From assembly GCA_049424145.1 (NCBI GenBank), contig JBMSSC010000018.1:1-29039 (forward strand): 29,039 nt of DNA, read 5' to 3'. This stretch comes from Bdellovibrionia bacterium (GTDB taxonomy: Bacteria > Bdellovibrionota > UBA1018). The stretch's first letter is position 1. Every line of letters begins with the position of its first letter. Shown here one piece after another: positions 1-24,346 of this stretch. The notes beneath the pieces were generated by a model, which saw only the letters and a list, made by a program, of their open reading frames with translations, was not told where the DNA came from and did not search any database. Position numbers and translations under genes: made by a program.

Positions 1-102
1 CCTCAGTCGCGCCCTGATACTGCCTCAGCTCCAAGTACCCCATCCTCCAATCCGAGTGCTGACTCTAAAACAGCAGCACCGTCACAAGGAGGAACTCGAT
101 GA
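1..102 (+). CDS. 3' end of an upstream operon gene (Pro/Ser/Ala-rich tail), truncated by the window edge
   Basis: Frame 1 is open from base 1 (PQSRPDTASAPSTPSSNPSADSKTAAPSQGGTR*). Its TGA (100-102) overlaps the next ATG (99-101) as ATGA, with AGGAGGA upstream. Confidence 0.7.
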   Translation, partial: PQSRPDTASAPSTPSSNPSADSKTAAPSQGGTR

Positions 103-1985
103 GGCTTCTCAGGCTTCTCCTCCTCGGCTCGATCTTGGGTTTAACCGCTCTTCCCCCTTGGGGCTCAACCGGGTTCGCATCGACTGATGATTCTTCAGTG
201 GTCGTTCGAGATTTGAACACAGCCTTAGAGTGGCAGAAAGTGAATCTCGAGGATCGTCTTCAAGCGAAGCTGATTAAGGCTATTAACCCAAGTATTCCGG
301 GTCAGTTTTTTATTGTGAATGTCAATTTAGAGCTCAAGCAAAAGCAAGACGACGTGGGAGATAGTACCGATGACTCGTCAGATCAGCTCGATTCTCCTCC
401 ATTGTTAGGTAAACTTGACTTGGAGGCGCCCAAGTTTCGGGAGAATAAAAAAGGCGAAGACGAGGATTCAAATATCTTTAAAAACATTCAAAAAGTAAGA
501 GTTAATGTCATCTTAGATCGGTCTGTGACCGAGGCAAAGAAAGAAGTCATTAAGAAGATCATTACTCCTGTGATTAGCTCTATCGGAGCTGAGTTACCCG
601 CTCTGGTCATTGATCAGGCTGAGTTGATCTCAGCAGAGCCTCAGGATCTCAAAAAGTGGCTCTACGATTTTAAGCAGCCGCTCGTTCTTTTAATTGTCGC
701 TTTGATTTTCGCCTTAGTGGTGATTTTTATATTTAATGGTTACCGGAAAATTGAATCCAGGAGAATCTCCATCCTTGAGTCTCAGAATAATCGAGCTGAA
801 ACCGAGGCCCAAACGCGGATTGAGAGAGAAACGGCGGAGGCGGAGCGAGCTGCAATCGCTTCCTCTGGATTAGGAGATCCACAAAAAGGCACTCTGGAAG
901 AAGGACGCCATCGAGAGGGTTTTGAAAAGTTTAAGATCTTATTGAAGGAATCGCCTGAGAAAGCCGCAGCTTTGGTGAAGCAGTGGGTGAAGGCTCCCGG
1001 TCGAGGCTCCTCTGAAGCGCTTGCGGTTCTGCCTCAAGAGTTAAGCACTGAAGAGATTCTTCTCGTATTCAAGCACATGAGCATGGACGATCGAAAGTCG
1101 TGGAGAAAGCTGCTGAGTCCTAACGTAGATCAAGCGACTCTAGCGGTTGCCTCACGGTTCATCTTCTCTCAAATTGTTGAGAGTCTACTGACGCCGCCTC
1201 CCATGATTAACGATGAGCTCCGTTCAATGATCTCTGAACTCAGTATCCCTGAGTGCATTGAAATTGCTTTACAGGACGCCGAACTGGGCGGTCTTCTAGT
1301 TAACATTCTCCCCTCCATGGAAGTGGGCAGGATGTTCTCTTTGATGAACCCTGAGTTAGCTAATACGGTCACCATTGCGAGTCTAAAGTTTTCTGAAGAA
1401 AGCATCCGTTTACGATCGAATGATCTGAAAGCGGCAATTGAAACCCTTAAGGGTAAAAGAAAACCCTCAACCGCTCCTTTTGTTGATGGAGCTACGGAGT
1501 TATTCAAGCACATCGGACCAGAAAAAGAGAGTCCCATCTTAGGTGCACTCATTGAATCTCAAGAGTTTGATTTACTCAATTCAGCAGTTCACCAATATTT
1601 TCCGGCGGAGTTAGTTTTTAAGTTACCCCCCAGGGTCTTAAAGCTCTGTCTGGATCGTTTGCCGATTCAAAAAAGAGCAGATTTTATACTCTCAACCGAT
1701 GAGGAATCTCAATCAATCCTACTGAACTCAGTCGGAAAGCCCGGGTCTAAGGTTCGTGATGTCATTGATGTGGAGGTTCAGCAGGCTAAGGAAGATGAGA
1801 TCCGAATGAAGAGGTTGGAGCGTAATAAAAGCGTTCTTTTAAAAGAGTTTTTGGATGTGGTGAGGCTTTTGATTCGAACGAATCAAGCCATTGAAGAACA
1901 AGCAGATGCCGTCATTGATGTTTGGCTCTCGGAAAAAACTGGGGGTCAAATTCAAGGGAGTTCTTATGCAAAAACATCGGCTTAA
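99..1985 (+). CDS. Putative FliF(RBM3+TM2+C-helix)-FliG fusion rotor protein
   Basis: Signal peptide (aa 1-27). RBM3-like split fold: LEDRLQAKL..IVNVNLEL, then an acidic insert, then IQKVRVNVILD..IKKII. One TM helix (aa ~195-212). FliF C-terminal-like motif PEKAAALVKQW (aa 286-296). Then FliG N/M/C-like helical segments, including YFPAE at the MFxF position, SKVRDVIDVE at the torque-helix position and FLDVVRLL. Same operon as motAB. Confidence 0.75.
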   Translation: MRLLRLLLLGSILGLTALPPWGSTGFASTDDSSVVVRDLNTALEWQKVNLEDRLQAKLIKAINPSIPGQFFIVNVNLELKQKQDDVGDSTDDSSDQLDSPPLLGKLDLEAPKFRENKKGEDEDSNIFKNIQKVRVNVILDRSVTEAKKEVIKKIITPVISSIGAELPALVIDQAELISAEPQDLKKWLYDFKQPLVLLIVALIFALVVIFIFNGYRKIESRRISILESQNNRAETEAQTRIERETAEAERAAIASSGLGDPQKGTLEEGRHREGFEKFKILLKESPEKAAALVKQWVKAPGRGSSEALAVLPQELSTEEILLVFKHMSMDDRKSWRKLLSPNVDQATLAVASRFIFSQIVESLLTPPPMINDELRSMISELSIPECIEIALQDAELGGLLVNILPSMEVGRMFSLMNPELANTVTIASLKFSEESIRLRSNDLKAAIETLKGKRKPSTAPFVDGATELFKHIGPEKESPILGALIESQEFDLLNSAVHQYFPAELVFKLPPRVLKLCLDRLPIQKRADFILSTDEESQSILLNSVGKPGSKVRDVIDVEVQQAKEDEIRMKRLERNKSVLLKEFLDVVRLLIRTNQAIEEQADAVIDVWLSEKTGGQIQGSSYAKTSA

Positions 1986-2577
1986 GATGCTCTTCACTAG
2001 CCTGTTAATGGCTTTATCAGTTGTACCTGTTGCCCAAGCAGCTCCCTTCTTGGGCTCTCAATTTCATATGAGGTTGGGACTTTTAAGTAGCAGCTTCTAT
2101 GGACCTACAACGGGTTCAAACTGGGTGCCTTATACGTTTGACCTGGAGTATGAGATCTTCTCCTCGAATCGAAGTTCTTACACCATTCGATCCATTCTTT
2201 CTTTTGATATCAGCACTTCTCGCATGGCGTATGCCTTTACAGGATTAGGGCGAAGGTACTACCTGAATTCCAGCGGATTAAGATATGAGCAGGAAAGCGG
2301 CATCAGTGGAGATCGCGTCACGACGATTCCTCGGTTTCGAACTTATGTGGGCGCTAAGCTTGGAGTTTCCCAAGTTCGGGTTAAAGATTTTGGACCGGCT
2401 CTTCAGATTCCAAGCACCCTATTTGACCTAGGCCCTGATTTAGGGGCCATTTATCAGATCACTCCTTCGCTAGGGGTGGAGATGAATGCAGGAGCCTCCT
2501 TGGGCTTAGGCTTTTCATCTGTTTCGGTCACTGGGATCTCTTATTACTTATTTTTGGGGGGGAGTTATTTTTTCTAA
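1966..2577 (+). CDS. Small outer-membrane beta-barrel protein (about 8 strands)
   Basis: Likely start ATG 1966 after AAGGGAG. Signal peptide ends AQA. Alternating amphipathic strands rich in Gly and aromatic residues. C-terminal GGSYFF resembles the BAM beta-signal. Confidence 0.75.
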   Translation: MQKHRLKMLFTSLLMALSVVPVAQAAPFLGSQFHMRLGLLSSSFYGPTTGSNWVPYTFDLEYEIFSSNRSSYTIRSILSFDISTSRMAYAFTGLGRRYYLNSSGLRYEQESGISGDRVTTIPRFRTYVGAKLGVSQVRVKDFGPALQIPSTLFDLGPDLGAIYQITPSLGVEMNAGASLGLGFSSVSVTGISYYLFLGGSYFF

Positions 2578-2604
2578 AACCTGCATTTCGAAACGAGGCT
2601 GGAT

Positions 2605-3405
2605 TTGAATTTCAAATCAATTCTCGCATTTATTTTAGCGGGTGCGGTTCTCTTTTACGGAGTTCTTGAATCCGGGAACACTACGATTTTTCTCAACACT
2701 CATGCCATGTTGATTGTTTTTGGGGGCAGTGTTGCTGCAGGATCGATCTCGTTTCAGATCGATCGAATCTTCATGATGTTTCGAGTGTTCGTCAAAAGAG
2801 TGATTCAGGGTAGAACTCAGGACTATGTCACGCTCATTAGACAGCTCATGTTGCTAAGTGATGCCTATCGAAAAAAGTCAGCCGACCTAGAAGTTCTGAT
2901 CGACTCGAGTGAAGATTTATTTTTAAAAGAATCATTTTTACTCATGATGGATGAAATCCTAGATGAAGAGACTTTAATTCGGGTTTTAAGGACACGGGTC
3001 AATACCTTCTATCAGCGTCAGATGGAAGAGATGATAAAGTTTAAAACGGTCGGGAAGTACCCTCCTGCATTTGGACTGATGGGGACCACCTTGAGTATGA
3101 TTACGCTTTTACAGAAGCTGGGTCAGGCAGGCGGCCAAAAGGTTATTGGTCCTGCAATGGCCTTGGGATTAGTAGCCACCTTCTTTGGACTGGCTCTGTC
3201 TAACCTGGTTTTCAATCCGATTTCCGAAAATCTTCAGGATAGCGCTAGGGAAAATAAGACGAAAAACATGATTATTGTTGAAGGAATTCGTCTGATTCTT
3301 CAAGGTACCAGTCCCGTGATTCTAGCAGAGGAGCTCAACTCATTTCTCTTACCCAGTGAGAGGATTGACTGGAGAAAAGTCGAAGGATTGGGGAAAACCG
3401 CATGA
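2605..3405 (+). CDS. motA: Stator A subunit MotA/PomA
   Basis: TTG start. Motifs IVFGGS, YRKK..DLE (charged rotor-facing helix), PPAFGLMGT and GPAMALGLVATFFG..NLVFNPI. Confidence 0.93.
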   Translation: MNFKSILAFILAGAVLFYGVLESGNTTIFLNTHAMLIVFGGSVAAGSISFQIDRIFMMFRVFVKRVIQGRTQDYVTLIRQLMLLSDAYRKKSADLEVLIDSSEDLFLKESFLLMMDEILDEETLIRVLRTRVNTFYQRQMEEMIKFKTVGKYPPAFGLMGTTLSMITLLQKLGQAGGQKVIGPAMALGLVATFFGLALSNLVFNPISENLQDSARENKTKNMIIVEGIRLILQGTSPVILAEELNSFLLPSERIDWRKVEGLGKTA

Positions 3406-4184
3406 GCGATCCCAATGAACTCAGATTATCCTTGGCACGAAGTGAAGGCCTCTTCAATGAGGCAAGTGAATTGGATTCCTTCCACGAGTCCACCGATTCA
3501 AACGAAGAACCTTGGCTCATCTCTTATGCCGATTTAATGACTCTTCTTTTTGGTTTTTTTGCGATGCTGTTTTCCTATGTGAGCCTGGACGATGATGCGA
3601 GTGTGAAAGTCAACAAGGAGCTGGTGAAGTACTTTGGCGGTGTGTATGTGTCCCCCGCCCAAAAGTTGACTGAAGAAGTGAAAGATCAGTGGTCCAAAGG
3701 GCCCTATAAAAAAGAGATGGATGTGAAGGTTCAAGAGGATGGACTAGAAATTAGCTTTATCACCTCCCTACTCTTTGAACCGGGGAAAGCCAATCTTCTT
3801 CCAGAATCATTAGCTCCTTTAAAAGTCTTGATTCAGCTGATTAAAGATGCAGAAAAAGGCACAGAGGTGAGAGTTGAAGGTCATACCGATGACAATCCCA
3901 TTTCAAGCTCCGTGTTCCCTTCAAATTGGGAGTTAAGCTCAGCTCGTGCAGCTGCAATTGTACGCATGTTTCAGTCCGAGGGATTTCCCGAAGAGAGGCT
4001 CTCACTTGCGGGCTATGGGGCAAGCAGGCCTGCTTATCCCAATCGTGATTCGAGCGGAGAAAAGATTGTTGAAAACCAGTCACTCAATCGACGAGTGGTG
4101 GTGAAGGTGATTCTTCCTAAGGGTCAGAAAAAGAGCGTTCCGCTCCCCGTAAGAGAGATGCCTGGTGGAAAAAATGGAGAATAA
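3402..4184 (+). CDS. motB: Stator B subunit MotB/PomB with OmpA-like peptidoglycan-binding domain
   Basis: WLISYADLMTLL carries the conserved ion-binding Asp. Also GHTD, FPSNWELSSARA and NRRV. ATGA overlap with motA. Confidence 0.95.
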   Translation: MSDPNELRLSLARSEGLFNEASELDSFHESTDSNEEPWLISYADLMTLLFGFFAMLFSYVSLDDDASVKVNKELVKYFGGVYVSPAQKLTEEVKDQWSKGPYKKEMDVKVQEDGLEISFITSLLFEPGKANLLPESLAPLKVLIQLIKDAEKGTEVRVEGHTDDNPISSSVFPSNWELSSARAAAIVRMFQSEGFPEERLSLAGYGASRPAYPNRDSSGEKIVENQSLNRRVVVKVILPKGQKKSVPLPVREMPGGKNGE

Positions 4185-4192
4185 AGATCTGA

Positions 4193-5263
4193 GTGATGTT
4201 GGAAAAAAAGGAAAGTGGCATGTGGAGAACCAATAAAGGATGGATTTTGATCTTCAGTGTTTTTTTTCTTGCCTCAGTAGGTCTCTTGCTTCCAATTTTA
4301 AAGACCAATCCAGTGGATTTAGAAAAACAGCGGCTTGAGAATCTCTTTGAACAAGACCGCAAGATACTGAAAAAAAAAGACGCCACTGAGTCTCAAGTTT
4401 ATGCAGCTCTGGTGCGCCTTGCAAAAGTCCATGACCCACTTGCGCTTGAGTATGCAATGGAGAGAAAGGCAACGGCATCTTCTTTTTTAAAAAAAGCATT
4501 GGCTGAGGTATTTGGATTTTTTGACACTCCTGAGACGCATCAGGGACTTTTGGATCTGAGTCGGGATTCGAATCTCGATGTGAGACTCGCCGTGGTTTCA
4601 TCCCTGACCCACTCACAGCTTCCTAAGAGGGAGGAGCTCTTAGGTCGTCTCTTGGAAAATGAGTCCGCACAGCCCGTTGAGCGAATTACCATCCTTGCAA
4701 CGCTCATCCAGGTGACTTCTTCTGCGGAGTTGAGAAAAAAAACAATTGAGCAGCTCCTCTCGGTGATGAGCACTCATGGAGAGATTGAGGTTCCCCGTTC
4801 GACTTTGATTTTGGTGGTTAACTCAGCAGCTGTGAGTCCTGAGATTCAGGAGTTTCTGAAAAAGATTTTGGATCAGCGAAAGTTCCCAGCCCTGGGGGGG
4901 CTTGCTGTTCGTCAGCTTGCAGCCTTAAGAAATCCTTGGTTGAAATCAAAAGCTCAGGACTTGTCGAAAAGTCCTGATTCCCAGGTCAGGCTTGCACTGG
5001 TTGAGAGTCTTCATTGGATCTGTCCAAAAGACCTATGGAGACTTATCGGTGACCTGCTTGTGAATGAAAAAGATCGGGATGTGCAATCGGCGCTTTTAGA
5101 TGAGCTTCAGCTCTTGGTCTCAAGATCCAGTATCCCTGAGGTGGAGCGAATCTTAAAGAATGCCAATTTGGAACACTCCGTTCAGCAGAGGCTCAAAGCA
5201 TGGGTCAATCAGGCTCTAAGGAAACAAACCGTTCAGCCCGCGTTCTGCGCTTCTGGGTCTTAA
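4193..5263 (+). CDS. Membrane-anchored HEAT-repeat protein
   Basis: N-terminal hydrophobic helix. HEAT-like units LSRDSNLDVRLAVVSSL, LSKSPDSQVRLALVESL and LVNEKDRDVQSALL. Starts 8 nt after motB. Confidence 0.8.
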   Translation: MMLEKKESGMWRTNKGWILIFSVFFLASVGLLLPILKTNPVDLEKQRLENLFEQDRKILKKKDATESQVYAALVRLAKVHDPLALEYAMERKATASSFLKKALAEVFGFFDTPETHQGLLDLSRDSNLDVRLAVVSSLTHSQLPKREELLGRLLENESAQPVERITILATLIQVTSSAELRKKTIEQLLSVMSTHGEIEVPRSTLILVVNSAAVSPEIQEFLKKILDQRKFPALGGLAVRQLAALRNPWLKSKAQDLSKSPDSQVRLALVESLHWICPKDLWRLIGDLLVNEKDRDVQSALLDELQLLVSRSSIPEVERILKNANLEHSVQQRLKAWVNQALRKQTVQPAFCASGS

Positions 5264-5540
5264 ATTGAGATAGCTAAAATATTTTTTTGGCTCAATCAAA
5301 AAGATCTATTTTTTAGATGAGCTAAGAGTTAATTTTTCATTCAAACCGAAGTGATCTAAAAATTGAAGCAGATTAAGATAGTTCTTTATTTAAAATTAAA
5401 ATAAATTATAGATCAATTCCAATTATAAGTTAGATTTCTCATCATAAAAAAAGATGATAAATTTTTTTTATAATTTAATTGTTTATATCGATTTAAACAG
5501 TTTTAGCTCCTTTGGTCAGGTCTTTTTTTAGGTTGGTTGT
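5264..5540. promoter_or_regulatory. Very AT-rich intergenic or promoter region marking the start of the toxin island
   Basis: Sharp drop in GC with A/T tracts and no ORF. Confidence 0.5.
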
Positions 5541-6218
5541 ATGGACTTAAGAAGTAAGGGTTTTTGTTTTTTACTCCTCTTTTTTGCTTTTCAAAGCTTA
5601 TCGGTTTTAGCCAGTGATGATCGCGTTGGAGATATTCGATACTCGATTTTATCTGAGGGACAGTTTCAAGCGCTTCATGGAAAAGACTGGGAGATTTTGC
5701 GTGGCCAGGAAGTGCCGCTCGACTCTCAGCTTAGAGAGTTTTGGAATGCACCGAACGTTCCTGATTCCCGAGGCGTATTTTTGAGGTGTGCAAATCAGAA
5801 TCGAGCCCGAGAACAAGGAAATCCAGAAGGTGATCTTGAGGTGGGAGCTTACCAAGCAGATCAGTTTAAGGAGCATAATCATGGTGGAGGAAATCACCAT
5901 CATCATACTTTCCTCGAGCTGACTGCTTCAAGAAACTCAGATGGAAATGTTCGTAACACAGTTGCTAACTATCCTCTTTATCAAAGTCCCGTTCAAACTA
6001 CGGACTCAGGAGAGATCATCAAGCCTGAAGGCGATCAGGAGACCCGTCCTCGTTGTGTCACCGTCAACGCCTTCATTAAAATTCAGGAGAGTTCCAGAAA
6101 CTTGGATGCGCGGGCCAACTCTCTGCACGACTTAATTGAGCGTTTGATGTCGTCTTCGGAGTTTCTTGATTTCATCAGAAATTCTATCGTTTCCAATTTA
6201 AAAAACTTTAAGCTCTAG
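5541..6218 (+). CDS. Exported phage tail-collar / tail-fibre-like protein
   Basis: Signal peptide ends SVLA. Collar-type motifs VGDI..W..LRGQ, VPDSRGVFLR, VGAYQADQFKEHNH and ETRPRCVTVNAFIKI. Confidence 0.75.
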   Translation: MDLRSKGFCFLLLFFAFQSLSVLASDDRVGDIRYSILSEGQFQALHGKDWEILRGQEVPLDSQLREFWNAPNVPDSRGVFLRCANQNRAREQGNPEGDLEVGAYQADQFKEHNHGGGNHHHHTFLELTASRNSDGNVRNTVANYPLYQSPVQTTDSGEIIKPEGDQETRPRCVTVNAFIKIQESSRNLDARANSLHDLIERLMSSSEFLDFIRNSIVSNLKNFKL

Positions 6219-13297: not shown

Positions 13298-14311
13298 TTA
13301 ATAGTTTTCAGAATTGAGTGGACTGACCTCGCCACTGGAATCGCGAGGGAAAAAAAGCTTGGATCCACTCAGGTTCAAAATCTCTAATTGATCAGAATGC
13401 ACGAGGTAGTTCATCTGAACGGGAGATTCAAGTCTTGTGGCTTGGCCTCGAATCACTCGCTTGGGAGCGCTGCTTCCTGAAACAGTGGAATTAAAAAATA
13501 AAATCTGATTTTTATCCTGATCTAAAATAGCTAGTTCTTGGTGTTCTGGGATGACGAGAATATCTTGAGCGCTGTTGATTTGGGTGAGATCTCCTGAGAG
13601 GGTTTTGAGCAGCGCGGTTTTATTTTTGTCTTTTTTCCCTTCAACGTCAGCCAGTCTTGAGAAAAATAGAATTTGAGATTTTTTTGAGTGGGCAATGATT
13701 AAGTCCTGTGAGTCGGCTGAGACGGCAAGTGTGGTGGCATCGATGAGACGGTGATTTTTGAGTACTCGCTTTGGCGCAACGTTTCCGGGGTAGCGGAGAT
13801 CAAAGGAGAGAACGAGTCCTCGGCGACTGTCGAGGATGAAAACTTCCTGATTTTTTAGGTCCAGGGCTAGAGCTGTTATGGTTTTGAGTTCGGTGTGGTT
13901 TCCTGCGATGAGTTTTCTTGAAGTCACCGCAAGGGCTGTTGGAGCCGTCTCGGCTGGTTGAGTCTGCTTAGTTTCAATCCAGATCATGTTTTTGTAACCC
14001 ACGATTCGAGTTTCTCCATCAGGGGACTTTTTTATGGCATGACCTGACGCTGCCTTGAGGGCTTCCTCGAAGCATTTTTCTGAGACAGCAGTCGGTTCTT
14101 TTTCATCGAGATACGTTTGAGCATTCTCAATGCAGATTTTGAGTCGTGAAGTGTTGAGGGATGGATCTGCTGCAAGAAGAAGAGAGGGAAAAGATCCGAT
14201 TAGTCCAACCCAGAGAAGAGCTGAGGCCAAGCGTTTAAAAGCAGGTCTCTTCATGGGTAATGAACTCAGTTTTAAGCTCTCATATTTCCTTTGTTCTCGG
14301 AGTTGAGGCAT
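13298..14311 (-). CDS. Exported NHL/beta-propeller-like protein
   Basis: Signal-like helix (start possibly 14254). Repeated blades GNVAPKRVL, GSSAPKRVIRGQATRLESP and LSGDLTQINSA with hydrophobic strands. Starts 20 nt after the giant gene. Confidence 0.7.
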   Translation of the reverse strand: MPQLREQRKYESLKLSSLPMKRPAFKRLASALLWVGLIGSFPSLLLAADPSLNTSRLKICIENAQTYLDEKEPTAVSEKCFEEALKAASGHAIKKSPDGETRIVGYKNMIWIETKQTQPAETAPTALAVTSRKLIAGNHTELKTITALALDLKNQEVFILDSRRGLVLSFDLRYPGNVAPKRVLKNHRLIDATTLAVSADSQDLIIAHSKKSQILFFSRLADVEGKKDKNKTALLKTLSGDLTQINSAQDILVIPEHQELAILDQDKNQILFFNSTVSGSSAPKRVIRGQATRLESPVQMNYLVHSDQLEILNLSGSKLFFPRDSSGEVSPLNSENY

Positions 14312-14331: not shown

Positions 14332-17300
14332 CTAAGGGCTTTGTCCTGTTAACGATTGAGAGACGCTTCCGCCCGGTGATCCACTGATGCTGAAATTACC
14401 TGAATAGGTTTGGGTGGGTCCGCCTGAGAAAAGAACTTGAACGGTACAGTATCCATTAGGAGCCAAGATTTGGTTGCTGCAGTTATCTGTGGGTAGGCTG
14501 AACTGGGTACCTGTGACCTGAGCGCTTCCCAGAGTTATTGGGACGCTACTGATGTTACGGATGAAGTACTCATGACTGAGGTAGCTGAATAAAGGAACAC
14601 TGCCGAAGGAGTCGGGAGACAGGAGAGGATTTCCAGCGTTGTCAGTGATCCTTAGCCCATTGAAGGGCACAGAGATGGCTGAGACTGAGAGGGTAGGTGC
14701 GGTGAGTTCAATCGTCTTGGTCTCAGGATACGTTGAGTTGAGTGTGCAGGTAGAAACACCGGTTGAGAGAGTGCTGGAACAGCTACTCTGAACGTTGGTG
14801 CTATTGGTATTGGTGGCTGAGAACTGTGGATTGATGCCTGAGATGGCGTTTCCGTAGGCATCGGTAATGAGAACCGAGAGCTGAATTCCTTGGCTGCCGT
14901 CTGCTAGGACTGGGCCGGTGCCGTTTAGGGGGCTTGAAGAAAGAGTACTCAATGAAGCTGCTGCGGGTTGAATCGTTTGAGTCTGCTGTGCGTTAGGGAG
15001 GCTCGAGGAAATGGTGAGAGTGGGGGATCCTGCGCGAGTGTCTTTGAAGTAAAATGAAGTCGAGTTTGCGGAGGTTAAAATCGAAGACTGGGTCACAGGC
15101 GAGCCTGTACAGCCTGATTGAGTAAAGAACTGAGCGGTTCCACTGGAGGAGCTGCTGAAGTTCAGAGTCATAGGTGCACTTAGGTTTGTCACGTTATTGT
15201 ATGCGTCTCGGGTTTGTATCGAGACCATGTTGGAGCATTGGCCGGCAGCCACTGGGCTTGCGGATGTAGTGAAGGCAAGCTGTGCGGGAGTATTGGCAAG
15301 AACATTGAATGCAGAGCTTGTCACGGGTGAGAAACCAAAAGAGGCAGCTTGATAGGTGTATCCAGTTCCTGTTTTATTGATTTTAAGATCACTGAATGTG
15401 GCAATCCCCTGGTCTGCATTGACACTGAGAGTGCCTAGCGCTGAAGCAGATGTGGGGTTGTTGGCTAAAGAGAGCGTAATTCCTTGGGTTGCTGAACTCA
15501 GAGTATTGCCATAGCTATCTTGGATCGCGACTTGAACTGAGGGGGTTATCACATTTCCCGCTAGAACCTGCGAGGGCTGAGTGAGGAAGCCTAACTGAGT
15601 TGCTGCAGCAGGAGTGATCGTGAAAGCAGAGCTGGTGGCGCTTGAGATCCCAGGGACTGAGGCCATGAGAGTATAGTTTGAGCCAATCTTTTGGATTGAA
15701 AGAGAGTTGAACGTAGCTTTACCATCACTGATGGAGGTCGCAACCGGGTTGGTTCCGACTAGCGTCGCCGAAGTAGGGTTGTTGGAGATGCTGAGGGTGA
15801 CATTGACAGGAGACGTGGTTACTGGGTTAGTGTAAGCGTCGTAGACTTGTACAACCGTATTGAAAGGAGTTCCAGCCGTAGCGGAGCTTGGAGGGTGAGT
15901 AATAAAACTCAGGCTACTTGGAGCAGCGGAGTCAATCGTTTCTTGCTGAGAGCCTGAGGAAAGCCCCCCTGTGCTTGCAGTGAGAGTGATTGGGCCTGCA
16001 ACGGTGGATTTGAAGTAAAAGCTGGCTGTACTGGTATTGCTAGGAATGGAAAGGTTACTGATTGCATCGGTGCAAGTGGAGTTTGAATAAAAGGAAACAC
16101 TGCTTCCAGCTAAGTTAATCGTTCGCGTTGAGGCGCTGAGGACTTCATTTGCATAGGCGTCTTGAGTTTGAAGCGTGGTAATACCTGAGCACTCTCCTGC
16201 ACGAATTCGTTGAGCAGAGGTGGTAAAGCCTAGTTGAGCAATCGCTCCGGGTGTGGCTGTTTGAGTGAAGAGAATAAAGGGAGAGGTGCCTGCCACTTGC
16301 GCGGGATAGTTGGGTAATGGAAATCCTGCACCGGCTTTTAGAATTTGGGATCCCGCAATAGTACCTAAAGTATATCTGGTTTTTGCCCGACCCTGTGCAT
16401 CGGTGGGGACGATTGCAGGGTTAACGGACCCTCCGCCCGACTGAACACTAAAAGTAATGGGCGTGTCTGCAACAGGGTTTAACCATCGATCTCGGACCTC
16501 AACTTCAGGGTCAATGGGAACAGCGGTATTGACCTCTGCTGTCTGTGCTCCTCCAGCGATTTGAAGCACATGATCAGGAGATGCTGCCTTAACAGTGATG
16601 CCAGGAGAAGGGATGTTGGTGCCCAGGGGAGTCGCTAACGTAATGACTCGGCCTGTTCCTGCCGTATAGAAAGTGCCTGAGAATTCTTTTCGTCCTTTCA
16701 CGAAAGAAGACGTTGCGGGGTTAACCACATTCGAATGGGCATCTGCGGCTGTTAAATTAATGGAGATGGAGCCATCGTAGGACAATCCTTCGTTCGCATC
16801 GTCTCCTTCGTTATTCCAATCATCAATAGCAGACACTTGAATATTAAACGCGCTTCCTGCCGTTTGAGGACTCGCAGAACCCAGGGTTACAACTCCCGTG
16901 TTGTAACCCTTGTTGAGGGATAGTCCTGGAGGTAGGACCACGGCTTTGGTGATGGTGTTATGTTTGACTCGAATTTCATTTGAGGCGACGCCATCGATCA
17001 GATTTCCTGAAGGTCCAATTGGAGTGAGGGTCCAGCCTGATCCGTGAGTTGAGGATTTTCCGAGCGTAACAGAAATGGTGGTCTGCCCATTGGAGAGGGT
17101 TTGTGCAGCGGGCATGGATGCAGCTGAATCTGAGGAGACAAAAGTCACTTGGGTGGTCTGATCATTGGTAACAATATTAAATTTGGAATCGGTTCGATAA
17201 ACGTTCACATTAAAAGGAACTCCTGCGGTTTGAATTGAGGGAGGTCCCGTTACGGCACCAGCGAAGGTTTTTTTCGCGCCTGAGAAGACTTGTCCTGGTA

Positions 17301-20300
17301 GAACGGCAATCGTTTTTCTATTAAGACCCATGCTCACAGTGAATACCTCAGAAAAAGATGAGGCAAGACCGCTTGATTGCGTTTCGATCTTGAAGTTAGA
17401 ACCTAAGGTGATGGGGGTGAGGGTGAATAGAGCCAGACCGCTTGAGAATTGTGTTGGGGTGGTGGGGTTTGCGTGTTCACTCGAGGGCTCATTATATGTG
17501 ATGCTCACAGAGTTCGAGCTTGAGGTGACTCGGTTATTAAATAGATCGACCGCATAGACGGAAGCGATAAAGTTACTATCGGTGGTGATTGGAAATGGAG
17601 TCCCTGATTTTCCTGTTGGGCTTCCTTGCTCAAAGGTTTCTCCTGGAAGGAGAGTGAGGGTGTGGTCAAGTGTAGCCGGTTGGACAGTATATTGACTGGA
17701 TTGCTGATTGTTATAGGAGCCGCCCGCTGCATTGAGTGTTCGAGTTGTTCCCGCAGTACGCGTTGTGACGGTGAATTGAACTTCCCCTGAGCTGAGAGAA
17801 CCAGAAGATGGATGCGTGTCGTAGGGGTCATTGGTTTCTAGTGAGATCGGAGTGGAGGGGACTGAGGATACCCGGTTGTAGTGATCATCGACTACAATGA
17901 CCTTGACTTGAAAAGACTGTCCCGCTGTTTTGGGATTGAGTCCTGAAGTCGGAAGAGCGCTGGTTAACGAACCAATAGCCCAGCCTTCAGAAAGAGTTTG
18001 TCCTAGGTCGGTTAAGACGGCGACCGTTTGAGTGGGAAGATTCGGGGTCACGGAATAGGTGGTGGATTGATGATTATTGAGACCTGAGGTAGCGGATCCG
18101 GTGGCTCTGAGGTTAGCCGAGCTTGCAATGTAGTTCTGAACGCTAAAAGTGGCGACGCCGGATGAAAACGCCTGAGCCGAAGGGCCAGGAGTGTGCGTGT
18201 CAGGGGCAGTAAGAGAGAGAGTACCTAGACCTGTGTTGAAGCTAGTGACGGTGTTAAAGTAGGGATCCACGGCTTTGACAGTAACAGTGAAATGAACCCC
18301 TGCAGTGACAGACGATGGGGAACCCTCTTTTGCAGACTCAAGGGTGCTTCTTCCTGCGACCAGAGATTCTCCGGGTAAGAGGACAACGGTTTGTGAGGCA
18401 GCGCCTGGATCGATATTAAAGAGGGAACTAGGGTTGTTAGAGGGCAGTGAGGCCGTGTTGGTGCATTGAATCGTATAGTTCGTCTTAGCGAGGCGATAAT
18501 AAACCCCTGAAAATTGGGCTACACCAGAGTTTAAAGTTTGAGTGGATGGGCCGGATGCATTGGGATCAGAGGGGTCATTGGTGAGGGTGACGCTGCCTGA
18601 GACCCCGGATGTGACGACGTTGAAATAGGGATCGGTCGCATAGGCGTTCACTTGAAAGGGATTTGTGGTGGTTAATCCCGTGCTGACAGGGGTGTTTAAG
18701 GCATTCTCCAAACTCGATGCTCCCTGCTTGAGTCCTGGTCCCACAACTGTTGCTAACGGGCCAGCTGATGAATCAGTCATTTCTGTGATGGCTTGTCCTT
18801 GACCGGGAAGAACTAAAACAATCTGTGAAGCTGCAGCCGGATTGACAGTAAACTTCGAGCTCGGCAAATTCACCGTGGAAAGAGAGGTGGCTGCGGAAAG
18901 CGTTTGATTTTTCCAAGCCGTTCTGGGGATAAAGCTCAGATTGATGACGCCTGAGGAGAAGTTCTGAGGAGCTAGAGTGACGTTGGGATCGGAGAGGTTG
19001 AAGGTGGCAGAACCGTTGTAACCCGAAACAGTATTGAATCCTTCATCTACGGCTCGGATCGTCCAGGAGGTGGACGTTCCAGCGGTGAGCGGGCTAATTG
19101 TTCCTGTGACGGCTGCAGAGGCGTTGAGTACTCCGGGTTGATAAGATTGACCAGGGCCGATAACGAGAGTTCTTGCAGGTGTCGTTCCAGCAATGACCTG
19201 GATAGACCTCTCTGATGAGACTGTGTTTGAGGTCAATTCTGTTGCAATAAGTTTAATGGTTTCTACCTTAGGGTATTTGAGATCAGAGAACGTGGCCACT
19301 CCTGCGGATACTACTTGACTCTTGGGTCCATCTAATAGTGAAGCAACTCCAGTTCCTCCGCTTAAAGAGACGGTGATTAACGTTTGATCATTTGTGGTGA
19401 TGACGTTGTTGAATCGATCGCGGATGCGGGCTGAAAATGAACTCATCGGAGTCTGATTGCTTGCGGTGTAAGTGGAGGGAGGATTTGGACTCCAATCAAC
19501 GTTGGCAATCGTGGGTTCAGGTAAAACGGTGACATGATCGATGTCTTGAGGAGATGAAAGAGTAGACCAAGCTCCCGCTTGGACGCTGAGTGTTCCGGTT
19601 TGAGTTGCGGTGATGGATACGCTGCCTAATCCTTGGTTCAGATTTCCGGTCACGCTTAGGTTCGCTGCTCCTGAAGTATCACTCGCGCTGGCCAAAGTGG
19701 TGGAGAGAATGTCTTGTCCACCGAGGTTGGATGAGAATTGAAAGGTAATGGTTTGATTTGCAGTGGCGCCTGAACTCACCGTATTTCCATAAGGGTCAAC
19801 GCCAGTAATGGAATACGTAACGGAGCTACCTGCGATGAGCGTTGGGGGAGTTGTCGTTGCAGGCGTGACCTTCATTCGTAAGTGGCTCAGAGGTCGGTTG
19901 CTGACGCTGAGGGATGCTAGAGTGGCTGTTTTTCCAAGTCCCGTGATCTGAATAGTGGGTGTGGTGGCTGAGTTATAGAGGATGAAATCAGGTGTGTTGA
20001 GGACTCCCCCGGTGAAGGTGTAGTTTCCATCGGCAGGCTTTTGGTCGATATAGGAAGGATAGATCGTTGGAGTTGAGCCTACGATGTTAAACGTGAGATA
20101 GGCTGCAGAGTCAAAAGTAGTGATCCGATTATTCTTAGAGTCTTGCATTTCAAGTCTCAAAGTAAAAGCCGTACCCGCAGTCGTACTCGGTGAGAGTGAA
20201 GCGTTACTCACCTGTGCTTGTGTTTTTAAACTGAAGTGATGAAATTCTCCTACTCCTACGGTGATGGTCCCAGTGGAGGAGCTGAGTCCGGAGCTAAGGA

Positions 20301-23214
20301 GGGCGGTCAATACTCCAGTGCCTGTATTTTGTGGATGAAATTGGATCGCCCCATGGGTTCCGGTTGAGTAAGTGGCCGCCACAGGACCTGTGATGAGAGT
20401 GCTTGAGCTCCAATTAATCCCTGAGAGAACTCCAATGTAGTTGAGTTCGGAGTCGTATCCCGTTGCGTAATAAGTGGGTTCGGAATCCGTTGTGAGGCTG
20501 ATGCTTGATGCTGTAATTATGGGATCAGTCTCTGCAGGCCCACTTCTTAGAGACAGTGTAGTTGGAGAGCCTGGAATGAGAGTGGGGACTAAAAAGTTTT
20601 TAACGGTAGGAGGCGAGAAGGCGGTTCCAGGGTTACAAAAAGGGCCTTGAGTGATGCTCGCTGGAGTACTGCAATGGGTTCCTGAAATATCACTGAGTGT
20701 GAGTCCAATTTGAACTGTATTACTTTGTTTTGGAATTTTTAGTCCGCTAATTGTTGCAACTCCGTTAGTGAAATTATAGGTGCCTGAAGTTGGAACAATA
20801 GGGGAAGTCCCCTGATTTGAAGCAGTATGACCTGTGACAAAAGCGTTCATGTAGTAAGACCCATTTAAAAGAACGAGTTGATTGGATGAATCACGTGCTT
20901 CAATGGTTAGGGTCAAAGGCCGAGTGACATCGATCGTGTTGGTGGGATTTGTGCCGTCTGAGATAGAAATAGCGAAGTGATCAGCGGTACTTGTTTGAGC
21001 GGTATAAAGGGTGTAAGCGCCCTGATTATTATTGGCAGAAGGGGAATACAGAGCCAGTGTTCCCGCACCTGCTGTGATTGGAGTATAAATCGCAGACGAG
21101 CCCGTGATGGGCGACGAGGGGGGCGAAGTCGCGAATTCTCCATCAAAGACCCCCGTGGTGCTCCACTGGGTATCCGAGGGTGAGGAGATCGTATTTCCAG
21201 CTGCATCGGTGAGTACCGCATAAAAAGTTCTTGAAGCCAGAGCAGATGAGCTGGGAGTAGCAGGGAGAGCCACACCAACGGCATCAAGCCAGTAGGGATA
21301 TCCATTGGCAACAGCATATTGGTCTAAAATAAATGACCCGTTGTTCAGTTGGTTGGAGTGAAGCTCGATTCGGGTTCCTGGTCCACGGTTGACTTGAATG
21401 ACTGGGGTCATCCCAGCAGGATTAAATGCGCTTGGAGTTCCTACAGGGGGATTGTTGATTTGCACTGAAATCTGAGGTTGTAGCGTGGGGTAATTGCCGG
21501 GATTTCCATTTCCATCTTGGTTGGCATAGTTTAGTGATGCGCTCAGATCAGCATTGGCGACACCGTTTAGAAAAGTTTGTTGATAGGTTCGACTACCACA
21601 GCCCTTCAGAGCTTCAATTGAAATTGAGGGAGGAAGATTTGCAGGGATCGAGCTTGGAGTATTAAAACTGGCGGGCTGATGAAATGTGTTATCACCTGAG
21701 AGCATGAAGCGGTTACAACCTCGACTCACGGGAGGGTCAGCTGAAGCATTTAAGAAGCTTGCTGTGATCTCAAAAGAGCCGGTAAATCCTTGAGTTCCGT
21801 CGTGATGAGCGATTAATGGGTTTCCCTTTGCATCGACAACGGAGATGTTGATTTTAAAAGGAACTCCTGCGGTTTCAAGTTGATTGTGCTCAGTGGTGAG
21901 GAGCACACCTTTCATTTGTCCAGGATTTACTCGGTAGCTTAAAAATCCGGTGAGTTGACTTGCAGAGGCTTGAATCCGAGCGGATCCAGTGAGATGGGGA
22001 GTGAGAACAATGGCAGGACCGATCAGGCTTGCACTGCCTGAAGGGGTTCCAATGTAGGGTAGAATTCGCGTGCCAGCGCTTCCTGCAGGGGCGCCAGGGA
22101 AGTCAGTTACAAGCCATGCGGCTTGCTGAGCATCGGAGTAGTAATTTCCGATCGAATCAACGATGGCGGCATAAATGGTGGTCTGAGGTTCATCTGTACT
22201 TCGAATGAGTTCTTCAGGATTTTGTATGGCCACTGCATCATCAGAGGTGGAGCCAATGGCATCGGCTCCTTTGGGTCCTCCAGGAGCCCGCGCAAAGACG
22301 ATTTTTGAGGCCGCCGCAGGTAAAACGGTCATGGGCATATTGAAAACAGAAACGTAGCCTCCGGGGCCGTTTCCAACGGAGAGGTAAGTGAGCTGACTGG
22401 AATCTGTGACTTGGTACTGAATTGGGGTGGTGCAAATGCCGCTTACGAAAACACAAGTCATCGTCCCTGAAGGCAAGCTGTAGTCGCTACTGGAGTTTCC
22501 ATTCCAAGCCCATGCGTGTTGGGATACTGAGTTCCAAGTGAGCGTGATTGGACCGGTAAAGTTTTCAATGACTTGGCCAAGGTTATCCTTGAGCGAAACG
22601 ATGAAACCAAATGGAACGCCCGCAGTTTCGATAAAATCATGGGTGGAGGTGAGACCAAACTGATAGGGCACGCCGTTATTGGCCGTTGCGATTTGAAAGG
22701 TGGCTTTACTTTCGCTCCCTCGTACTCGAGCTTCAATTAAAATGTTGAGCTTGTACTGATTGGGAGCTTTCACCTGAGTAGAAGCGTAACCGCTGGTATC
22801 GGTTGTGGCATGTGCTGTGATGAGCGTTGCCTGGGTATTGGTGAGCTCTGTGAAGTCCACTTGGGTGCCAGGAATGGCTGCTCCTGTGGTCGGATCCACA
22901 ACTCGGACTGTCAATGGGGCGTTGAAAAAAGTGTTTGCATAAGTGATCTGTTGATTTCCTGAAACGATCTGAGTTTGAATTCCCAGAGTTCCTGAGACCA
23001 GTGCTTCGTTGCCTAAGTAATTACAGCTGGACAGAATCAGGCTCAGAAGGCTGAGTACTTGAAAACTTAGGATCTGATCGATTAAGTGAGTCTGGAGGCT
23101 TTGCTTGACGCGTGAATGAAACCAAGCCCACTGAGTCAAGATCGATTGACCAAGCGCCCGGATTCCGCTGGGCGGAGACTGGTTTTGTCCGAAGCTGAGT
23201 TTCTTTTTTTTCAT
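14332..23214 (-). CDS. Giant Ig-like repeat surface protein / adhesin (probable lipoprotein)
   Basis: 2960 aa, rich in Ser/Thr/Gly. Lipobox-like LILSSC (Cys64). Many AG..F.V.V.A.D...N beta-sandwich modules and Big_1-like units. C-terminal ASH/choice-of-anchor-D-like domain (DNCSNQILAPNGYCTVQVLF). Confidence 0.85.
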   Translation of the reverse strand: MKKKKLSFGQNQSPPSGIRALGQSILTQWAWFHSRVKQSLQTHLIDQILSFQVLSLLSLILSSCNYLGNEALVSGTLGIQTQIVSGNQQITYANTFFNAPLTVRVVDPTTGAAIPGTQVDFTELTNTQATLITAHATTDTSGYASTQVKAPNQYKLNILIEARVRGSESKATFQIATANNGVPYQFGLTSTHDFIETAGVPFGFIVSLKDNLGQVIENFTGPITLTWNSVSQHAWAWNGNSSSDYSLPSGTMTCVFVSGICTTPIQYQVTDSSQLTYLSVGNGPGGYVSVFNMPMTVLPAAASKIVFARAPGGPKGADAIGSTSDDAVAIQNPEELIRSTDEPQTTIYAAIVDSIGNYYSDAQQAAWLVTDFPGAPAGSAGTRILPYIGTPSGSASLIGPAIVLTPHLTGSARIQASASQLTGFLSYRVNPGQMKGVLLTTEHNQLETAGVPFKINISVVDAKGNPLIAHHDGTQGFTGSFEITASFLNASADPPVSRGCNRFMLSGDNTFHQPASFNTPSSIPANLPPSISIEALKGCGSRTYQQTFLNGVANADLSASLNYANQDGNGNPGNYPTLQPQISVQINNPPVGTPSAFNPAGMTPVIQVNRGPGTRIELHSNQLNNGSFILDQYAVANGYPYWLDAVGVALPATPSSSALASRTFYAVLTDAAGNTISSPSDTQWSTTGVFDGEFATSPPSSPITGSSAIYTPITAGAGTLALYSPSANNNQGAYTLYTAQTSTADHFAISISDGTNPTNTIDVTRPLTLTIEARDSSNQLVLLNGSYYMNAFVTGHTASNQGTSPIVPTSGTYNFTNGVATISGLKIPKQSNTVQIGLTLSDISGTHCSTPASITQGPFCNPGTAFSPPTVKNFLVPTLIPGSPTTLSLRSGPAETDPIITASSISLTTDSEPTYYATGYDSELNYIGVLSGINWSSSTLITGPVAATYSTGTHGAIQFHPQNTGTGVLTALLSSGLSSSTGTITVGVGEFHHFSLKTQAQVSNASLSPSTTAGTAFTLRLEMQDSKNNRITTFDSAAYLTFNIVGSTPTIYPSYIDQKPADGNYTFTGGVLNTPDFILYNSATTPTIQITGLGKTATLASLSVSNRPLSHLRMKVTPATTTPPTLIAGSSVTYSITGVDPYGNTVSSGATANQTITFQFSSNLGGQDILSTTLASASDTSGAANLSVTGNLNQGLGSVSITATQTGTLSVQAGAWSTLSSPQDIDHVTVLPEPTIANVDWSPNPPSTYTASNQTPMSSFSARIRDRFNNVITTNDQTLITVSLSGGTGVASLLDGPKSQVVSAGVATFSDLKYPKVETIKLIATELTSNTVSSERSIQVIAGTTPARTLVIGPGQSYQPGVLNASAAVTGTISPLTAGTSTSWTIRAVDEGFNTVSGYNGSATFNLSDPNVTLAPQNFSSGVINLSFIPRTAWKNQTLSAATSLSTVNLPSSKFTVNPAAASQIVLVLPGQGQAITEMTDSSAGPLATVVGPGLKQGASSLENALNTPVSTGLTTTNPFQVNAYATDPYFNVVTSGVSGSVTLTNDPSDPNASGPSTQTLNSGVAQFSGVYYRLAKTNYTIQCTNTASLPSNNPSSLFNIDPGAASQTVVLLPGESLVAGRSTLESAKEGSPSSVTAGVHFTVTVKAVDPYFNTVTSFNTGLGTLSLTAPDTHTPGPSAQAFSSGVATFSVQNYIASSANLRATGSATSGLNNHQSTTYSVTPNLPTQTVAVLTDLGQTLSEGWAIGSLTSALPTSGLNPKTAGQSFQVKVIVVDDHYNRVSSVPSTPISLETNDPYDTHPSSGSLSSGEVQFTVTTRTAGTTRTLNAAGGSYNNQQSSQYTVQPATLDHTLTLLPGETFEQGSPTGKSGTPFPITTDSNFIASVYAVDLFNNRVTSSSNSVSITYNEPSSEHANPTTPTQFSSGLALFTLTPITLGSNFKIETQSSGLASSFSEVFTVSMGLNRKTIAVLPGQVFSGAKKTFAGAVTGPPSIQTAGVPFNVNVYRTDSKFNIVTNDQTTQVTFVSSDSAASMPAAQTLSNGQTTISVTLGKSSTHGSGWTLTPIGPSGNLIDGVASNEIRVKHNTITKAVVLPPGLSLNKGYNTGVVTLGSASPQTAGSAFNIQVSAIDDWNNEGDDANEGLSYDGSISINLTAADAHSNVVNPATSSFVKGRKEFSGTFYTAGTGRVITLATPLGTNIPSPGITVKAASPDHVLQIAGGAQTAEVNTAVPIDPEVEVRDRWLNPVADTPITFSVQSGGGSVNPAIVPTDAQGRAKTRYTLGTIAGSQILKAGAGFPLPNYPAQVAGTSPFILFTQTATPGAIAQLGFTTSAQRIRAGECSGITTLQTQDAYANEVLSASTRTINLAGSSVSFYSNSTCTDAISNLSIPSNTSTASFYFKSTVAGPITLTASTGGLSSGSQQETIDSAAPSSLSFITHPPSSATAGTPFNTVVQVYDAYTNPVTTSPVNVTLSISNNPTSATLVGTNPVATSISDGKATFNSLSIQKIGSNYTLMASVPGISSATSSAFTITPAAATQLGFLTQPSQVLAGNVITPSVQVAIQDSYGNTLSSATQGITLSLANNPTSASALGTLSVNADQGIATFSDLKINKTGTGYTYQAASFGFSPVTSSAFNVLANTPAQLAFTTSASPVAAGQCSNMVSIQTRDAYNNVTNLSAPMTLNFSSSSSGTAQFFTQSGCTGSPVTQSSILTSANSTSFYFKDTRAGSPTLTISSSLPNAQQTQTIQPAAASLSTLSSSPLNGTGPVLADGSQGIQLSVLITDAYGNAISGINPQFSATNTNSTNVQSSCSSTLSTGVSTCTLNSTYPETKTIELTAPTLSVSAISVPFNGLRITDNAGNPLLSPDSFGSVPLFSYLSHEYFIRNISSVPITLGSAQVTGTQFSLPTDNCSNQILAPNGYCTVQVLFSGGPTQTYSGNFSISGSPGGSVSQSLTGQSP

Positions 23215-23563: not shown

Positions 23564-24346
23564 CTAGCTCAGAGCCTTCTTCTGATCCTCAGAAGAGGTG
23601 AGAATTTCAAGCTTAATGCTGCTCGATCTATTTTTGATGTAATTTAATATTCTTGCCTCAGTCTCTAGGTCAATTCCCGCGATGATCTTCTCGATGCTTT
23701 CCTCCGAACCTCCGTCTGATGCAAAGCTCTCCTGATCCTCAAGAAGTTCAAGGGACTCCTGATCAAAGAGGCCGTGAAAACGCTGCTTGATCTTCTTAGC
23801 AAATCGCCATGCAGCTTGCTCAAGAGCCTTCTCAGGAATTCTCTCTAGCCTTGAAATATGGAGAATAACTTGTCGTCTGAGATCTGCAGAAAAGCAGCTT
23901 AAGAGCTTGCTCATCTCCTCAGTACTCCAATAGAGGGATATGAATGCAATTTGGGCTGGGTCTTCTTTGCCCAGAATTCCATTGAGCTCTTCGCTGGTGA
24001 GTTCCTTGAGGAATACAAAAGGGTCTTCAGGTTCAGTGGAGTCCCCATGAGTTAGGCTCTCGGATAAGAACGTGATGTAGACCTCCAACATGCTCTTGGC
24101 ATCTGAGGCATGGTTACTTTCACTGATGACCTCTTTATTGATTTCTAAGAGGTATTTCCATTGATGGGCAGGGATGCGGTCAAAGAGCTGTTTGGAGTAA
24201 TCCACGCCAATTTGGTTAAAAAAGACCAGCAGCTTTCTTGCCGATTCAGGCTGAGAAATCATCCTTCTTGCAGCCACTTGGCAGCTTTTGGGATGAGAGA
24301 CGCTCAGAGTTAAGATCTTGTCTGTGAGGTCCAAGACGGATTGCAT
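23564..24346 (-). CDS. Truncated FliG-like protein (FliF-C-like helix + FliG N + M, no torque domain)
   Basis: RKLLVFFNQIG..SKQLF (FliG-N-like). PFVFLKEL..L..ILGKEDPAQIAFI (EHPQ position). RRQVILHISRL and the GG linker DGGSEESIEKII. The protein ends before an MFxF or torque helix. Confidence 0.75.
   Translation of the reverse strand: MQSVLDLTDKILTLSVSHPKSCQVAARRMISQPESARKLLVFFNQIGVDYSKQLFDRIPAHQWKYLLEINKEVISESNHASDAKSMLEVYITFLSESLTHGDSTEPEDPFVFLKELTSEELNGILGKEDPAQIAFISLYWSTEEMSKLLSCFSADLRRQVILHISRLERIPEKALEQAAWRFAKKIKQRFHGLFDQESLELLEDQESFASDGGSEESIEKIIAGIDLETEARILNYIKNRSSSIKLEILTSSEDQKKALS

Follow-up and report, generated by a model that had tools for sequence, protein, structure and literature searches.

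The window analysed here is the whole of contig C18 (29,039 nt) from the genome of a Bdellovibrionia bacterium (G000; 2.69 Mb, 95% complete), and its left end carries a putative envelope motor module built from relatives of the flagellar rotor and stator. Five intact open reading frames (ORFs) on the plus strand encode a FliF-FliG fusion of 628 aa (99..1985), a small outer-membrane (OM) beta-barrel (1966..2577), MotA (2605..3405), MotB (3402..4184), and an N-terminally anchored HEAT-repeat protein of 356 aa (4193..5263; HEAT_2, 2e-10). ATGA overlaps lie at 99-102 and 3402-3405, and the barrel gene starts at an ATG at 1966, overlapping the fusion gene by 20 nt. Ahead of the fusion, positions 1..102 (+) hold the low-complexity C-terminal tail of an upstream PEGA-TPR lipoprotein, an open frame ending in the first ATGA. 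The gene positions, both overlaps, and the MotA, MotB and HEAT assignments agree with a first-pass annotation of this DNA, which had proposed a stand-alone rotary motor; its remark that fliE, flg, flhAB, fliPQR and fliMN are missing also held, with no match to them among the 14 window ORFs scanned.

The fusion follows the order signal peptide, RBM3, one transmembrane (TM) helix, FliF C-terminal tail, and FliG N, M and C domains. This reading draws on a PDB profile search, an AlphaFold model, fold matching, and conservation across alignment A1, whose 111 rows comprise the window fusion, five closer relatives, and 105 near full-length members taken from 150 of the 331 clusters at 50% identity that make up the family; relatives are labelled Bdellovibrionia or Bdellovibrionales. 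As a single sequence the fusion matches no FliF or FliG Pfam family, Pfam and NCBIfam scans returning weak TM or MgtE-type matches only, and it gives no match to YscJ_FliF, the family that detects the canonical FliF on contig C50. The A1 profile reaches FliG structures in the PDB at E values of 1e-9 and 8e-6 and FliF structures at 1.5e-3 and 3.4e-3, with the FliF matches falling at the beginning of RBM3 and in the tail at the C-terminus. In the AlphaFold model (pLDDT 85.6, pTM 0.57), residues 36-177 (204..629) form a predicted periplasmic RBM3, or S-ring, domain that superimposes on FliF RBM3 (8z5v) with Z 12.3 and a root-mean-square deviation (rmsd) of 2.8 over 97 aligned residues, above PrgK and EscJ (Z 10.0 and 9.6); the SctJ/SctD rings and SctV export gate of an injectisome or type III secretion system are not part of the module. 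The RBM3 stretch includes a short, low-confidence insert with a conserved K-L-(G/D)-x-x-x-P motif, in which K105 is kept in 109 of the 111 rows. The periplasmic part holds one ring-building motif, which fits RBM3 only, and the model leaves no space for others; unlike FliF, with its RBM1-RBM2-RBM3 series and two TM helices, the fusion lacks RBM1 and RBM2, the motifs that surround the export gate in flagella.

The cytoplasmic part begins with the FliF C-terminal FliG-binding helices (894..992), aligned to Salmonella FliF 486-559 and carrying W296, invariant in 111/111 rows. Residues 302-608 (1002..1922) then span the FliG N, M and C domains, matching a full FliG (8umx_B) with Z 10.5 over 277 residues and an rmsd of 10.1, which is high because domain orientations differ; FliG_C alone matches 1qc7 with Z 9.5 and an rmsd of 2.7. 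All eight Foldseek matches of the model at E<=0.001 are FliG or FliG-containing C-ring and motor chains. The model thereby points to a complete FliG N-M-C with the torque helix of flagellar motors, located at residues 551-559 in the register of the A1 PDB alignment: K551 occupies the R281 position (K/R in 91/111 rows) and E559 the D289 position (D/E in 108/111). The EHPQ motif and the GG hinge both have functional roles in flagellar FliG. Here the FliM-binding EHPQ site is degenerate, reading QDAE in the window fusion and keeping His in a minority of rows, and the GG hinge has become PF. The single-chain FliF/FliG rotor of the first-pass annotation was therefore borne out in its folds, with the reservation that RBM3 and the C-tail are all that is present of FliF.

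Shorter members of the family, found in the A1 phylum search, consist of a cytoplasmic FliF tail and FliG only (370-420 aa) without a periplasmic ring (L085:8417-9529; G398:C13:8322-9413; G215:C5:33493-34566; G390:C59:13838-14848). The window's own genome also holds a lone FliG_C-only gene of 157 aa (C29:10373-10846, minus strand), away from any flagellar or module context.

The stator genes are of flagellar type. The window MotA matches MotA_ExbB at 1e-16 and the PomA/MotP/MotA NCBIfam models at up to 2e-35, each below its own cut-off, scoring 122 bits against MotP versus 23 against TolQ; R89 is kept at the R90 position, as is R/K in 30/33 module MotAs. MotB carries the ion-binding Asp44, a plug region (MotB_plug) and an OmpA-like peptidoglycan-binding domain, and the motif W..S/T-Y-x-D occurs in all 48 MotBs collected. 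Judged by these features, the pair reads as a flagellar-type MotAB with ion-binding Asp and peptidoglycan anchor, and not as an ExbBD/TolQR/AglRQS-type motor, which would combine an ExbB/TolQ-like A subunit with an ExbD/TolR-like B subunit lacking an OmpA domain. In a quick maximum-likelihood (ML) tree of 70 MotAs, with uncertain long-branch rows L090, L167, C160, L105, L172 and L096, all 33 MotAs from window-type loci, grouped by fusion E-value and hence independently of MotA, form one clade (SH-aLRT 97). The MotAs of other module subtypes form further clades; the seven E. coli-type MotAs lie outside the module clades, as do six of the seven stand-alone copies, the seventh (L172) being a long branch among module rows. 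MotA copies within one genome separate by type, as in G123, G275, G283 and G394. The stator thus appears from its phylogeny to be dedicated to the module.

The remainder of the upstream TPR lipoprotein gene is most likely on contig C37, at its open left terminus, where a TPR lipoprotein gene (C37:2-937, minus strand) runs off the contig within an 18-bp tandem repeat. Its best match is the TPR gene of L082, the locus that also supplies the best match to the window fusion, and both the C37 gene and the L082 operon are flanked by the same divergent ABC genes; C37 and C18 share no overlapping sequence, and the join is inferred. Because the upstream gene is placed on C37, the operon has one upstream gene, a lipoprotein gene, and no flagellar cluster. 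An earlier candidate for the tail, the motB of contig C160, was dropped after the C37 gene was found. Fold searches with the TPR lipoprotein gave generic TPR matches over residues 112-208 only, barely covering the N-terminal beta domain, and Pfam PEGA matched a relative's protein at 0.0045. The barrel, with a signal peptide and a C-terminal aromatic residue, has no Pfam match and its profile no meaningful sequence match in the PDB; its family profile (alignment A4) aligns, at an hhalign probability of 91.9%, to a module barrel that has a weak OMP_b-brl match, so that the proposed OM barrel is upheld as a probable fold of 8 strands. A complex prediction for RBM3, barrel and TPR lipoprotein scored 0.02.

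The distribution of the fusion gene is patchy, a single-protein search finding it in 4 of 41 close genomes. Scoring the best candidates, at most three per genome, the A1 profile found a match in 170 of the phylum's 401 genomes, 59 of them, in six families, at E<1e-40. Loci were fetched for 41 strong and 20 weak matches, and locus counts rest on 40 strong loci, L085 being excluded as a FliG half only. The TPR lipoprotein is present in 38/40 loci (40/40 with a looser HMM), the barrel in 37, motA in 33 and motB in 32, in variable order, with the TPR gene immediately 5' of the fusion as the rule. With the flagellar proteins of C50 as queries, no match was found in any of the 40 loci at E<1e-6. By this gene content, the fusion, the MotAB clade, the PEGA-TPR lipoprotein and the small OM barrel travel together without export gate, rod, FliM or FliN. 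The HEAT gene occurs in 7/40 loci and seems an accessory of one subtype, not a core part; of the gene set named in the first-pass annotation, the barrel and motAB were conserved and HEAT was not, while the core TPR lipoprotein had been overlooked. The weak matches are a mixture of other module subtypes and canonical FliF/FliG; 19 of the 20 loci encode a fusion-like ORF of 570-790 aa, most with the same kinds of partner. A metagenome scan yielded one short locus, a TPR lipoprotein gene followed by a fusion gene, and look-alikes of the module in Elusimicrobiota, Balneolota, Bacteroidota and Myxococcota (Atlas) are leads only.

The module coexists with a separate flagellar apparatus in the source genome. 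A canonical flagellar cluster on C50 carries fliF (563 aa), fliG (337 aa) and the single fliM of the genome; seven flagellin-family matches lie away from C50, and an E. coli-type motAB is on C60. A scan for FHIPEP took in 74 module genomes, the source genome lying outside it, and found a single FlhA locus in 73, although several carry 2-3 modules; modules consequently lack a dedicated export gate. Some genomes retain the module where no flagellum was detected. In G315 (94% complete) and G139 (99%), of genus g137, flagellin, FliM, FlhA and the rod/hook C-terminal domain all went undetected; G315 has two modules with motAB, which contain the only flagellar-type motA genes of the genome, and G139 has module-type motAB with the last 44 fusion residues at a contig end. 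Flagellin, FliM and FlhA were likewise not detected in G081 (94%, another family), which encodes a FliG_C fusion-motA-motB-phosphatase series, nor in G236 (97%, a third family), whose locus reads giant-TPR-motA-motB-554 aa-barrel; G236 probably keeps the module, given this layout and the 0.92 that its 554-aa protein scores in Atlas against the same clusters. Retention where flagellar genes go undetected supports the stand-alone character claimed in the first-pass annotation, and it is very likely that the module is separate from the flagellum. None of the three outcomes named there as refuting the proposal came about: upstream lies a lipoprotein gene, with canonical fliF/fliG on C50, the FliF/FliG folds are present, and the gene set is conserved.

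FliM is present in 356/401 genomes of the phylum, and the lack of detected flagellar genes in the near-complete G315 and G139 is unusual for it. Weak FliF-family matches in these two genomes were rejected as fliF (at most 63 of 179 positions, a 500-aa ORF, no flagellar context). Rejected as aflagellate were G128, G286 and G350, which have no FliM match but do have flagellin, and G042, which has a FHIPEP match; G068 gave no MotA-level match.

The far side of the window holds a second set of module genes, all on the minus strand: an exported NHL-type beta-propeller (13298..14311), a giant protein of 2960 aa with Ig-type repeats (14332..23214; Big_1, 6e-13), and a soluble FliF-tail plus FliG N-M fragment (23564..24346; FliG_M, 2e-7). 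The propeller is 45% identical to an L082 gene ending 2 nt from the HEAT gene, with further homologs in L046, where the homolog itself matches NHL, and L084; in relatives the NHL gene stands tail-to-tail with the HEAT gene. Homologs of the giant protein adjoin the module in L046, L049, L061, L066, L067, L077, L084 and others, and those of the soluble FliG fragment in L046, L061 and L084. Since homologs of these three genes lie directly beside HEAT in L046, L061, L082 and L084, the window represents two convergent operons of one module, separated by an 8-kb insert. The soluble fragment, which has no ring, TM helix or torque domain and shares 26% identity with the cytoplasmic portion of the L101 fusion across 236 aa, is a candidate ring spacer or clutch; the first-pass annotation missed this second FliG-like gene, as it did the frequent giant Ig/FN3 neighbours. 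NHL and soluble FliG N-M genes occur in 5/40 and 3/40 loci, respectively.

Giant proteins are a common neighbour of the module. ORFs of at least 900 aa lie within ~8 kb in 33/40 module loci, compared with 4/13 non-module motAB loci and 21/70 tiles of the source genome. Ig, FN3, ASH or laminin-G domains were found in 12 of 14 giant proteins scanned from module loci, the other two giving one weak GH2 Ig-type match only and no match. Several start with a lipobox, and the window protein, whose lipobox was read directly from its N-terminus, is a probable lipoprotein and a candidate cargo or adhesin.

These results are tentatively explained, at slightly less than an even chance, by a flagellum-independent, one-directional, stator-driven envelope ring made of flagellar parts and acting on a giant surface lipoprotein. 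In this scheme the fusion would be exported via its own signal peptide and build a ring in the inner membrane by way of RBM3 and FliG; engineered FliF-FliG fusions are reported to form rings (10.1101/2023.02.06.527414). The co-encoded MotA5B2, anchored to peptidoglycan, would turn the ring via the FliG_C torque helix, in one direction and without CheY control, given that FliM and FliN are lacking, EHPQ is degenerate, and the GG hinge has changed to PF. The conserved periplasmic loop might couple the ring to the TPR lipoprotein and barrel, which could move or hold the giant surface lipoprotein with its Ig/FN3 repeats in the service of surface attachment or motility. Stator-driven rotation of the ring is rather probable, and action on the giant surface protein is plausible but short of probable. 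If so, the module would be a distinct rotary machine, widespread in Bdellovibrionota, in which a self-exported rotor ring with its own stator spins or translocates giant adhesins without filament or export gate, a possibility that we put forward with some reserve.

Several observations weigh against this interpretation. Ring formation, rotation and output, including the gliding, secretion or prey attack suggested in the first-pass annotation, are deductions, not experimental observations, and no P/L-ring equivalent explains rotation across the peptidoglycan. The classical motor pairs MotA R90/E98 with FliG D288-D289/R281, as set out in PMC12505986 and PMC7564593, and judged by the residues at these positions the module interface looks half conserved and half drifted: the E98 equivalent is D/E in 15/33 module MotAs compared with 13/14 non-module MotAs, and the D288 position is hydrophobic in the fusion family. 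The RBM3 insert is short and of low confidence, with no modelled beta-collar. Seven of the 40 loci have no motA within the fetched stretch, although G275 and G123 have a further motA ~17 kb from the fusion, outside that stretch; seven have no giant ORF, none occurs in the L100/L101 loci, and a handful of the large ORFs encode coiled coils or unrelated proteins. Locus and residue counts come from kin that are not independent and do not amount to statistical tests. Co-occurrence with a flagellum is the norm, 73/74 module genomes being flagellated; the genomes without detected flagella are incomplete assemblies, in which 'not found' does not equal 'absent', though flagellar genes are spread over many clusters and several markers are missing together, and the 554-aa protein of G236 has no Pfam or profile match. 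All three motAB pairs of B. bacteriovorus reportedly serve its single flagellum, according to the title of Morehouse et al. 2011. Bdellovibrio gliding is assigned, in PMC3539863, to Tol-Pal-TonB-like operons.

With the flagellar motor core the module shares RBM3, the FliF-tail Trp, FliG N/M/C, the R281 and D289 positions, and, in the stator, the MotA R90 position, the MotB Asp, the plug and the peptidoglycan anchor, identifying its parts as flagellar homologs. It differs in a single-chain rotor with signal peptide, one TM helix, a short insert and no RBM1/2, in degenerate EHPQ and PF in place of the GG hinge, and in partners comprising an OM barrel, a TPR lipoprotein and a giant protein. As far as the 40 loci indicate, there is neither a FliM/FliN switch with its EHPQ site nor an export gate, rod, hook or filament, and overall the module departs from a flagellar motor in four defining features. 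Natural Chlamydia fusions and engineered ones also join FliF to FliG in one chain, and the engineered ones permit assembly and rotation according to PMC4768692. The engineered fusions keep the whole of FliF, unlike the module, and the Chlamydia fusion is described in the same paper as having no RBM3 and a FliG_M-like part only, the opposite choice of domains. GldLM-GldKN-SprB and AglRQS-Glt-CglB combine an ion-driven 5:2 motor with periplasmic TPR or lipoprotein links, OM barrels and a large surface adhesin, and have no FliF/FliG ring and stators that are not flagellar-type. The likeness of GldLM and AglRQS to the module is one of design logic only, and AglRS is placed among non-flagellar stators in PMC12505986. 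The GldL/GldM, GldK/GldN and SprA families were not among the Pfam scan matches, no test having been aimed at type IX secretion. A search of an open-access library, which did not extend to subscription papers or bioRxiv supplements, found no description of this pattern, and the module matches no machine described there.

A related module occurs in a genetically tractable predator. Locus L101 encodes a fusion of 577 aa, in which FliG_C and FliG_M exceed the Pfam cut-off and FliG_N is weaker, along with MotA, MotB, a pair of barrels, a TPR lipoprotein and a helical protein with a TM anchor. Its proteins fall in 90% clusters with B. bacteriovorus HD100 CAE80783.1 ('FliG protein'), CAE80789.1 and CAE80788.1, and its motA has 2 mismatches to the published Bd3021 primer; the Bd0144 primer corresponds to the stand-alone motA of L155. 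From these correspondences, motAB2 (Bd3021/Bd3020) and the second 'fliG' of B. bacteriovorus sit in such a module, a subtype distant from that of the window (profile E 3e-14, separate MotA subclade). Six locus tags tried were not found in the Tn-seq supplements of PMC6561027, where the numbering is possibly different. Most epibiotic predators examined have no motAB1 and motAB2, according to PMC11870529, and this loss is a lead towards lifestyle.

Other explanations account for part of the evidence. RBM3-only rings such as SpoIIIAG act as channels, and the module could be an energised export or assembly machine, its ring a SpoIIIAG-like conduit or scaffold while MotAB pulls or seats the giant lipoprotein without moving the cell, perhaps by analogy with GldLM energising type IX secretion. 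SpoIIIAG shares with the fusion an RBM3-type split ring-building motif without RBM1/2, as reported in PMC4768692, but it is a component of a sporulation complex with no FliG and no stator. The enrichment of giant lipoproteins beside the module and a possible resemblance of the TPR lipoprotein and small barrel to OM assembly factors fit this alternative, which is nonetheless unlikely, as a full FliG with kept torque charges suggests rotation over a static pore, some modules have no giant neighbour, and the 40 loci contain no gene for a translocon, an ATPase or an export gate. The module might instead sense surface or load, with stator engagement on a tethered ring reporting surface or prey contact to signalling proteins. 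Genes that read as a HAMP-SpoIIE phosphatase, FecR-like and cNMP-domain proteins lie beside or inside modules: the phosphatase adjoins 6/40 loci as well as L086, L088, L100, L101 and L210, and FecR-like genes adjoin 4/40. Stator mutations shift Bdellovibrio lifestyle in PMC11323537, though for motA3 and fliL; such signalling genes occur at a minority of loci and differ between subtypes, the core parts being the TPR lipoprotein and the barrel, which makes a sensor distinctly unlikely.

An accessory role in swimming, with extra stators and an alternative FliG tuning one flagellum, would suit the near-constant presence of FlhA in module genomes and the literature view, as in PMC3539863, that counts three MotAB pairs and two FliG of B. 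bacteriovorus as flagellar. It seems very unlikely, since modules persist without detected flagellin, FliM or FlhA, and in G315 and G139 also without rod/hook, the fusion offers no RBM1/2 for an export gate, and the 40 loci hold no flagellar gene; FliL (Bd1076) interacted with MotB3, not with MotA2 or MotB2, in PMC11323537. The stators of the module could nevertheless act on the flagellum as a sideline. A non-rotating scaffold, on whose FliG part MotAB docks and pulls periplasmic partners as ExbBD/TolQR do, is highly improbable: the drifted E98 and D288 positions, the disorder of the RBM3 insert in the model, and the extreme divergence of some members (G236) would be expected of it, but MotB retains its OmpA-like anchor, MotA matches the flagellar type and retains R89, FliG retains the R281 and D289 positions, and no TonB-like partner was seen in the clusters.

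To our knowledge, the FliG-MotAB torque pair has been described only from flagella. If the rotor and stator do persist without export gate, rod and filament, the pair would work alone, which bears on the origin of the flagellar motor, and the module would supply structural and reconstitution studies with a minimal rotor. Its presence at motAB2 of B. bacteriovorus makes the proposed ring testable now and, if true, would cast new light on why these predators carry several motAB pairs and a second FliG gene.

Two further modules of other subtypes are present in the source genome. One (C87:135-4898 with C91:9509-11195) encodes a barrel-domain protein, a TPR protein, a 750-aa fusion and a cNMP-domain protein; a motA that starts at the end of C87 probably continues on C91, the order being that of L166 and L169, where the cNMP-domain gene likewise lies between fusion and motA. 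The other (C160:2967-4572) has TPR, motA and a cut motB. A HAMP-SpoIIE phosphatase gene followed by a possible FecR-like gene occurs at C6:23687-26330; this phosphatase is homologous to those adjoining modules of relatives, yet lies on a separate contig here. In 17-18 of the 40 loci, nearly all of family f22 (L048, L050, L053, L055-L060, L063, L068-L075), the module is accompanied by an exported protein of 450-620 aa, a candidate extra subunit with no Pfam match in the one member scanned.

The insert between the two operons resembles a polymorphic toxin cassette, probably interbacterial judging from its genes (5541-12867, plus strand), which encode proteins of 225, 1928, 90 and 130 aa, the last DUF6228/WapI-like; paralogs of the 225-aa and 1928-aa genes lie on C30 and C127. 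Contigs of four sequencing runs cover the window, with no joint across 5264-13297; one X1 contig bridges 4645-10607 and so confirms the insert for its run, and towards the C-terminal end the contigs of other runs diverge. Divergent from the soluble FliG fragment, a 384-aa coiled-coil protein is encoded at 24566-25720 (+), with no homolog in the fetched loci; unrelated coiled-coil genes flank several modules. Further right, 26240-28240 (+) encodes an exported protein of 666 aa with a weak HAD-like N-terminal match.

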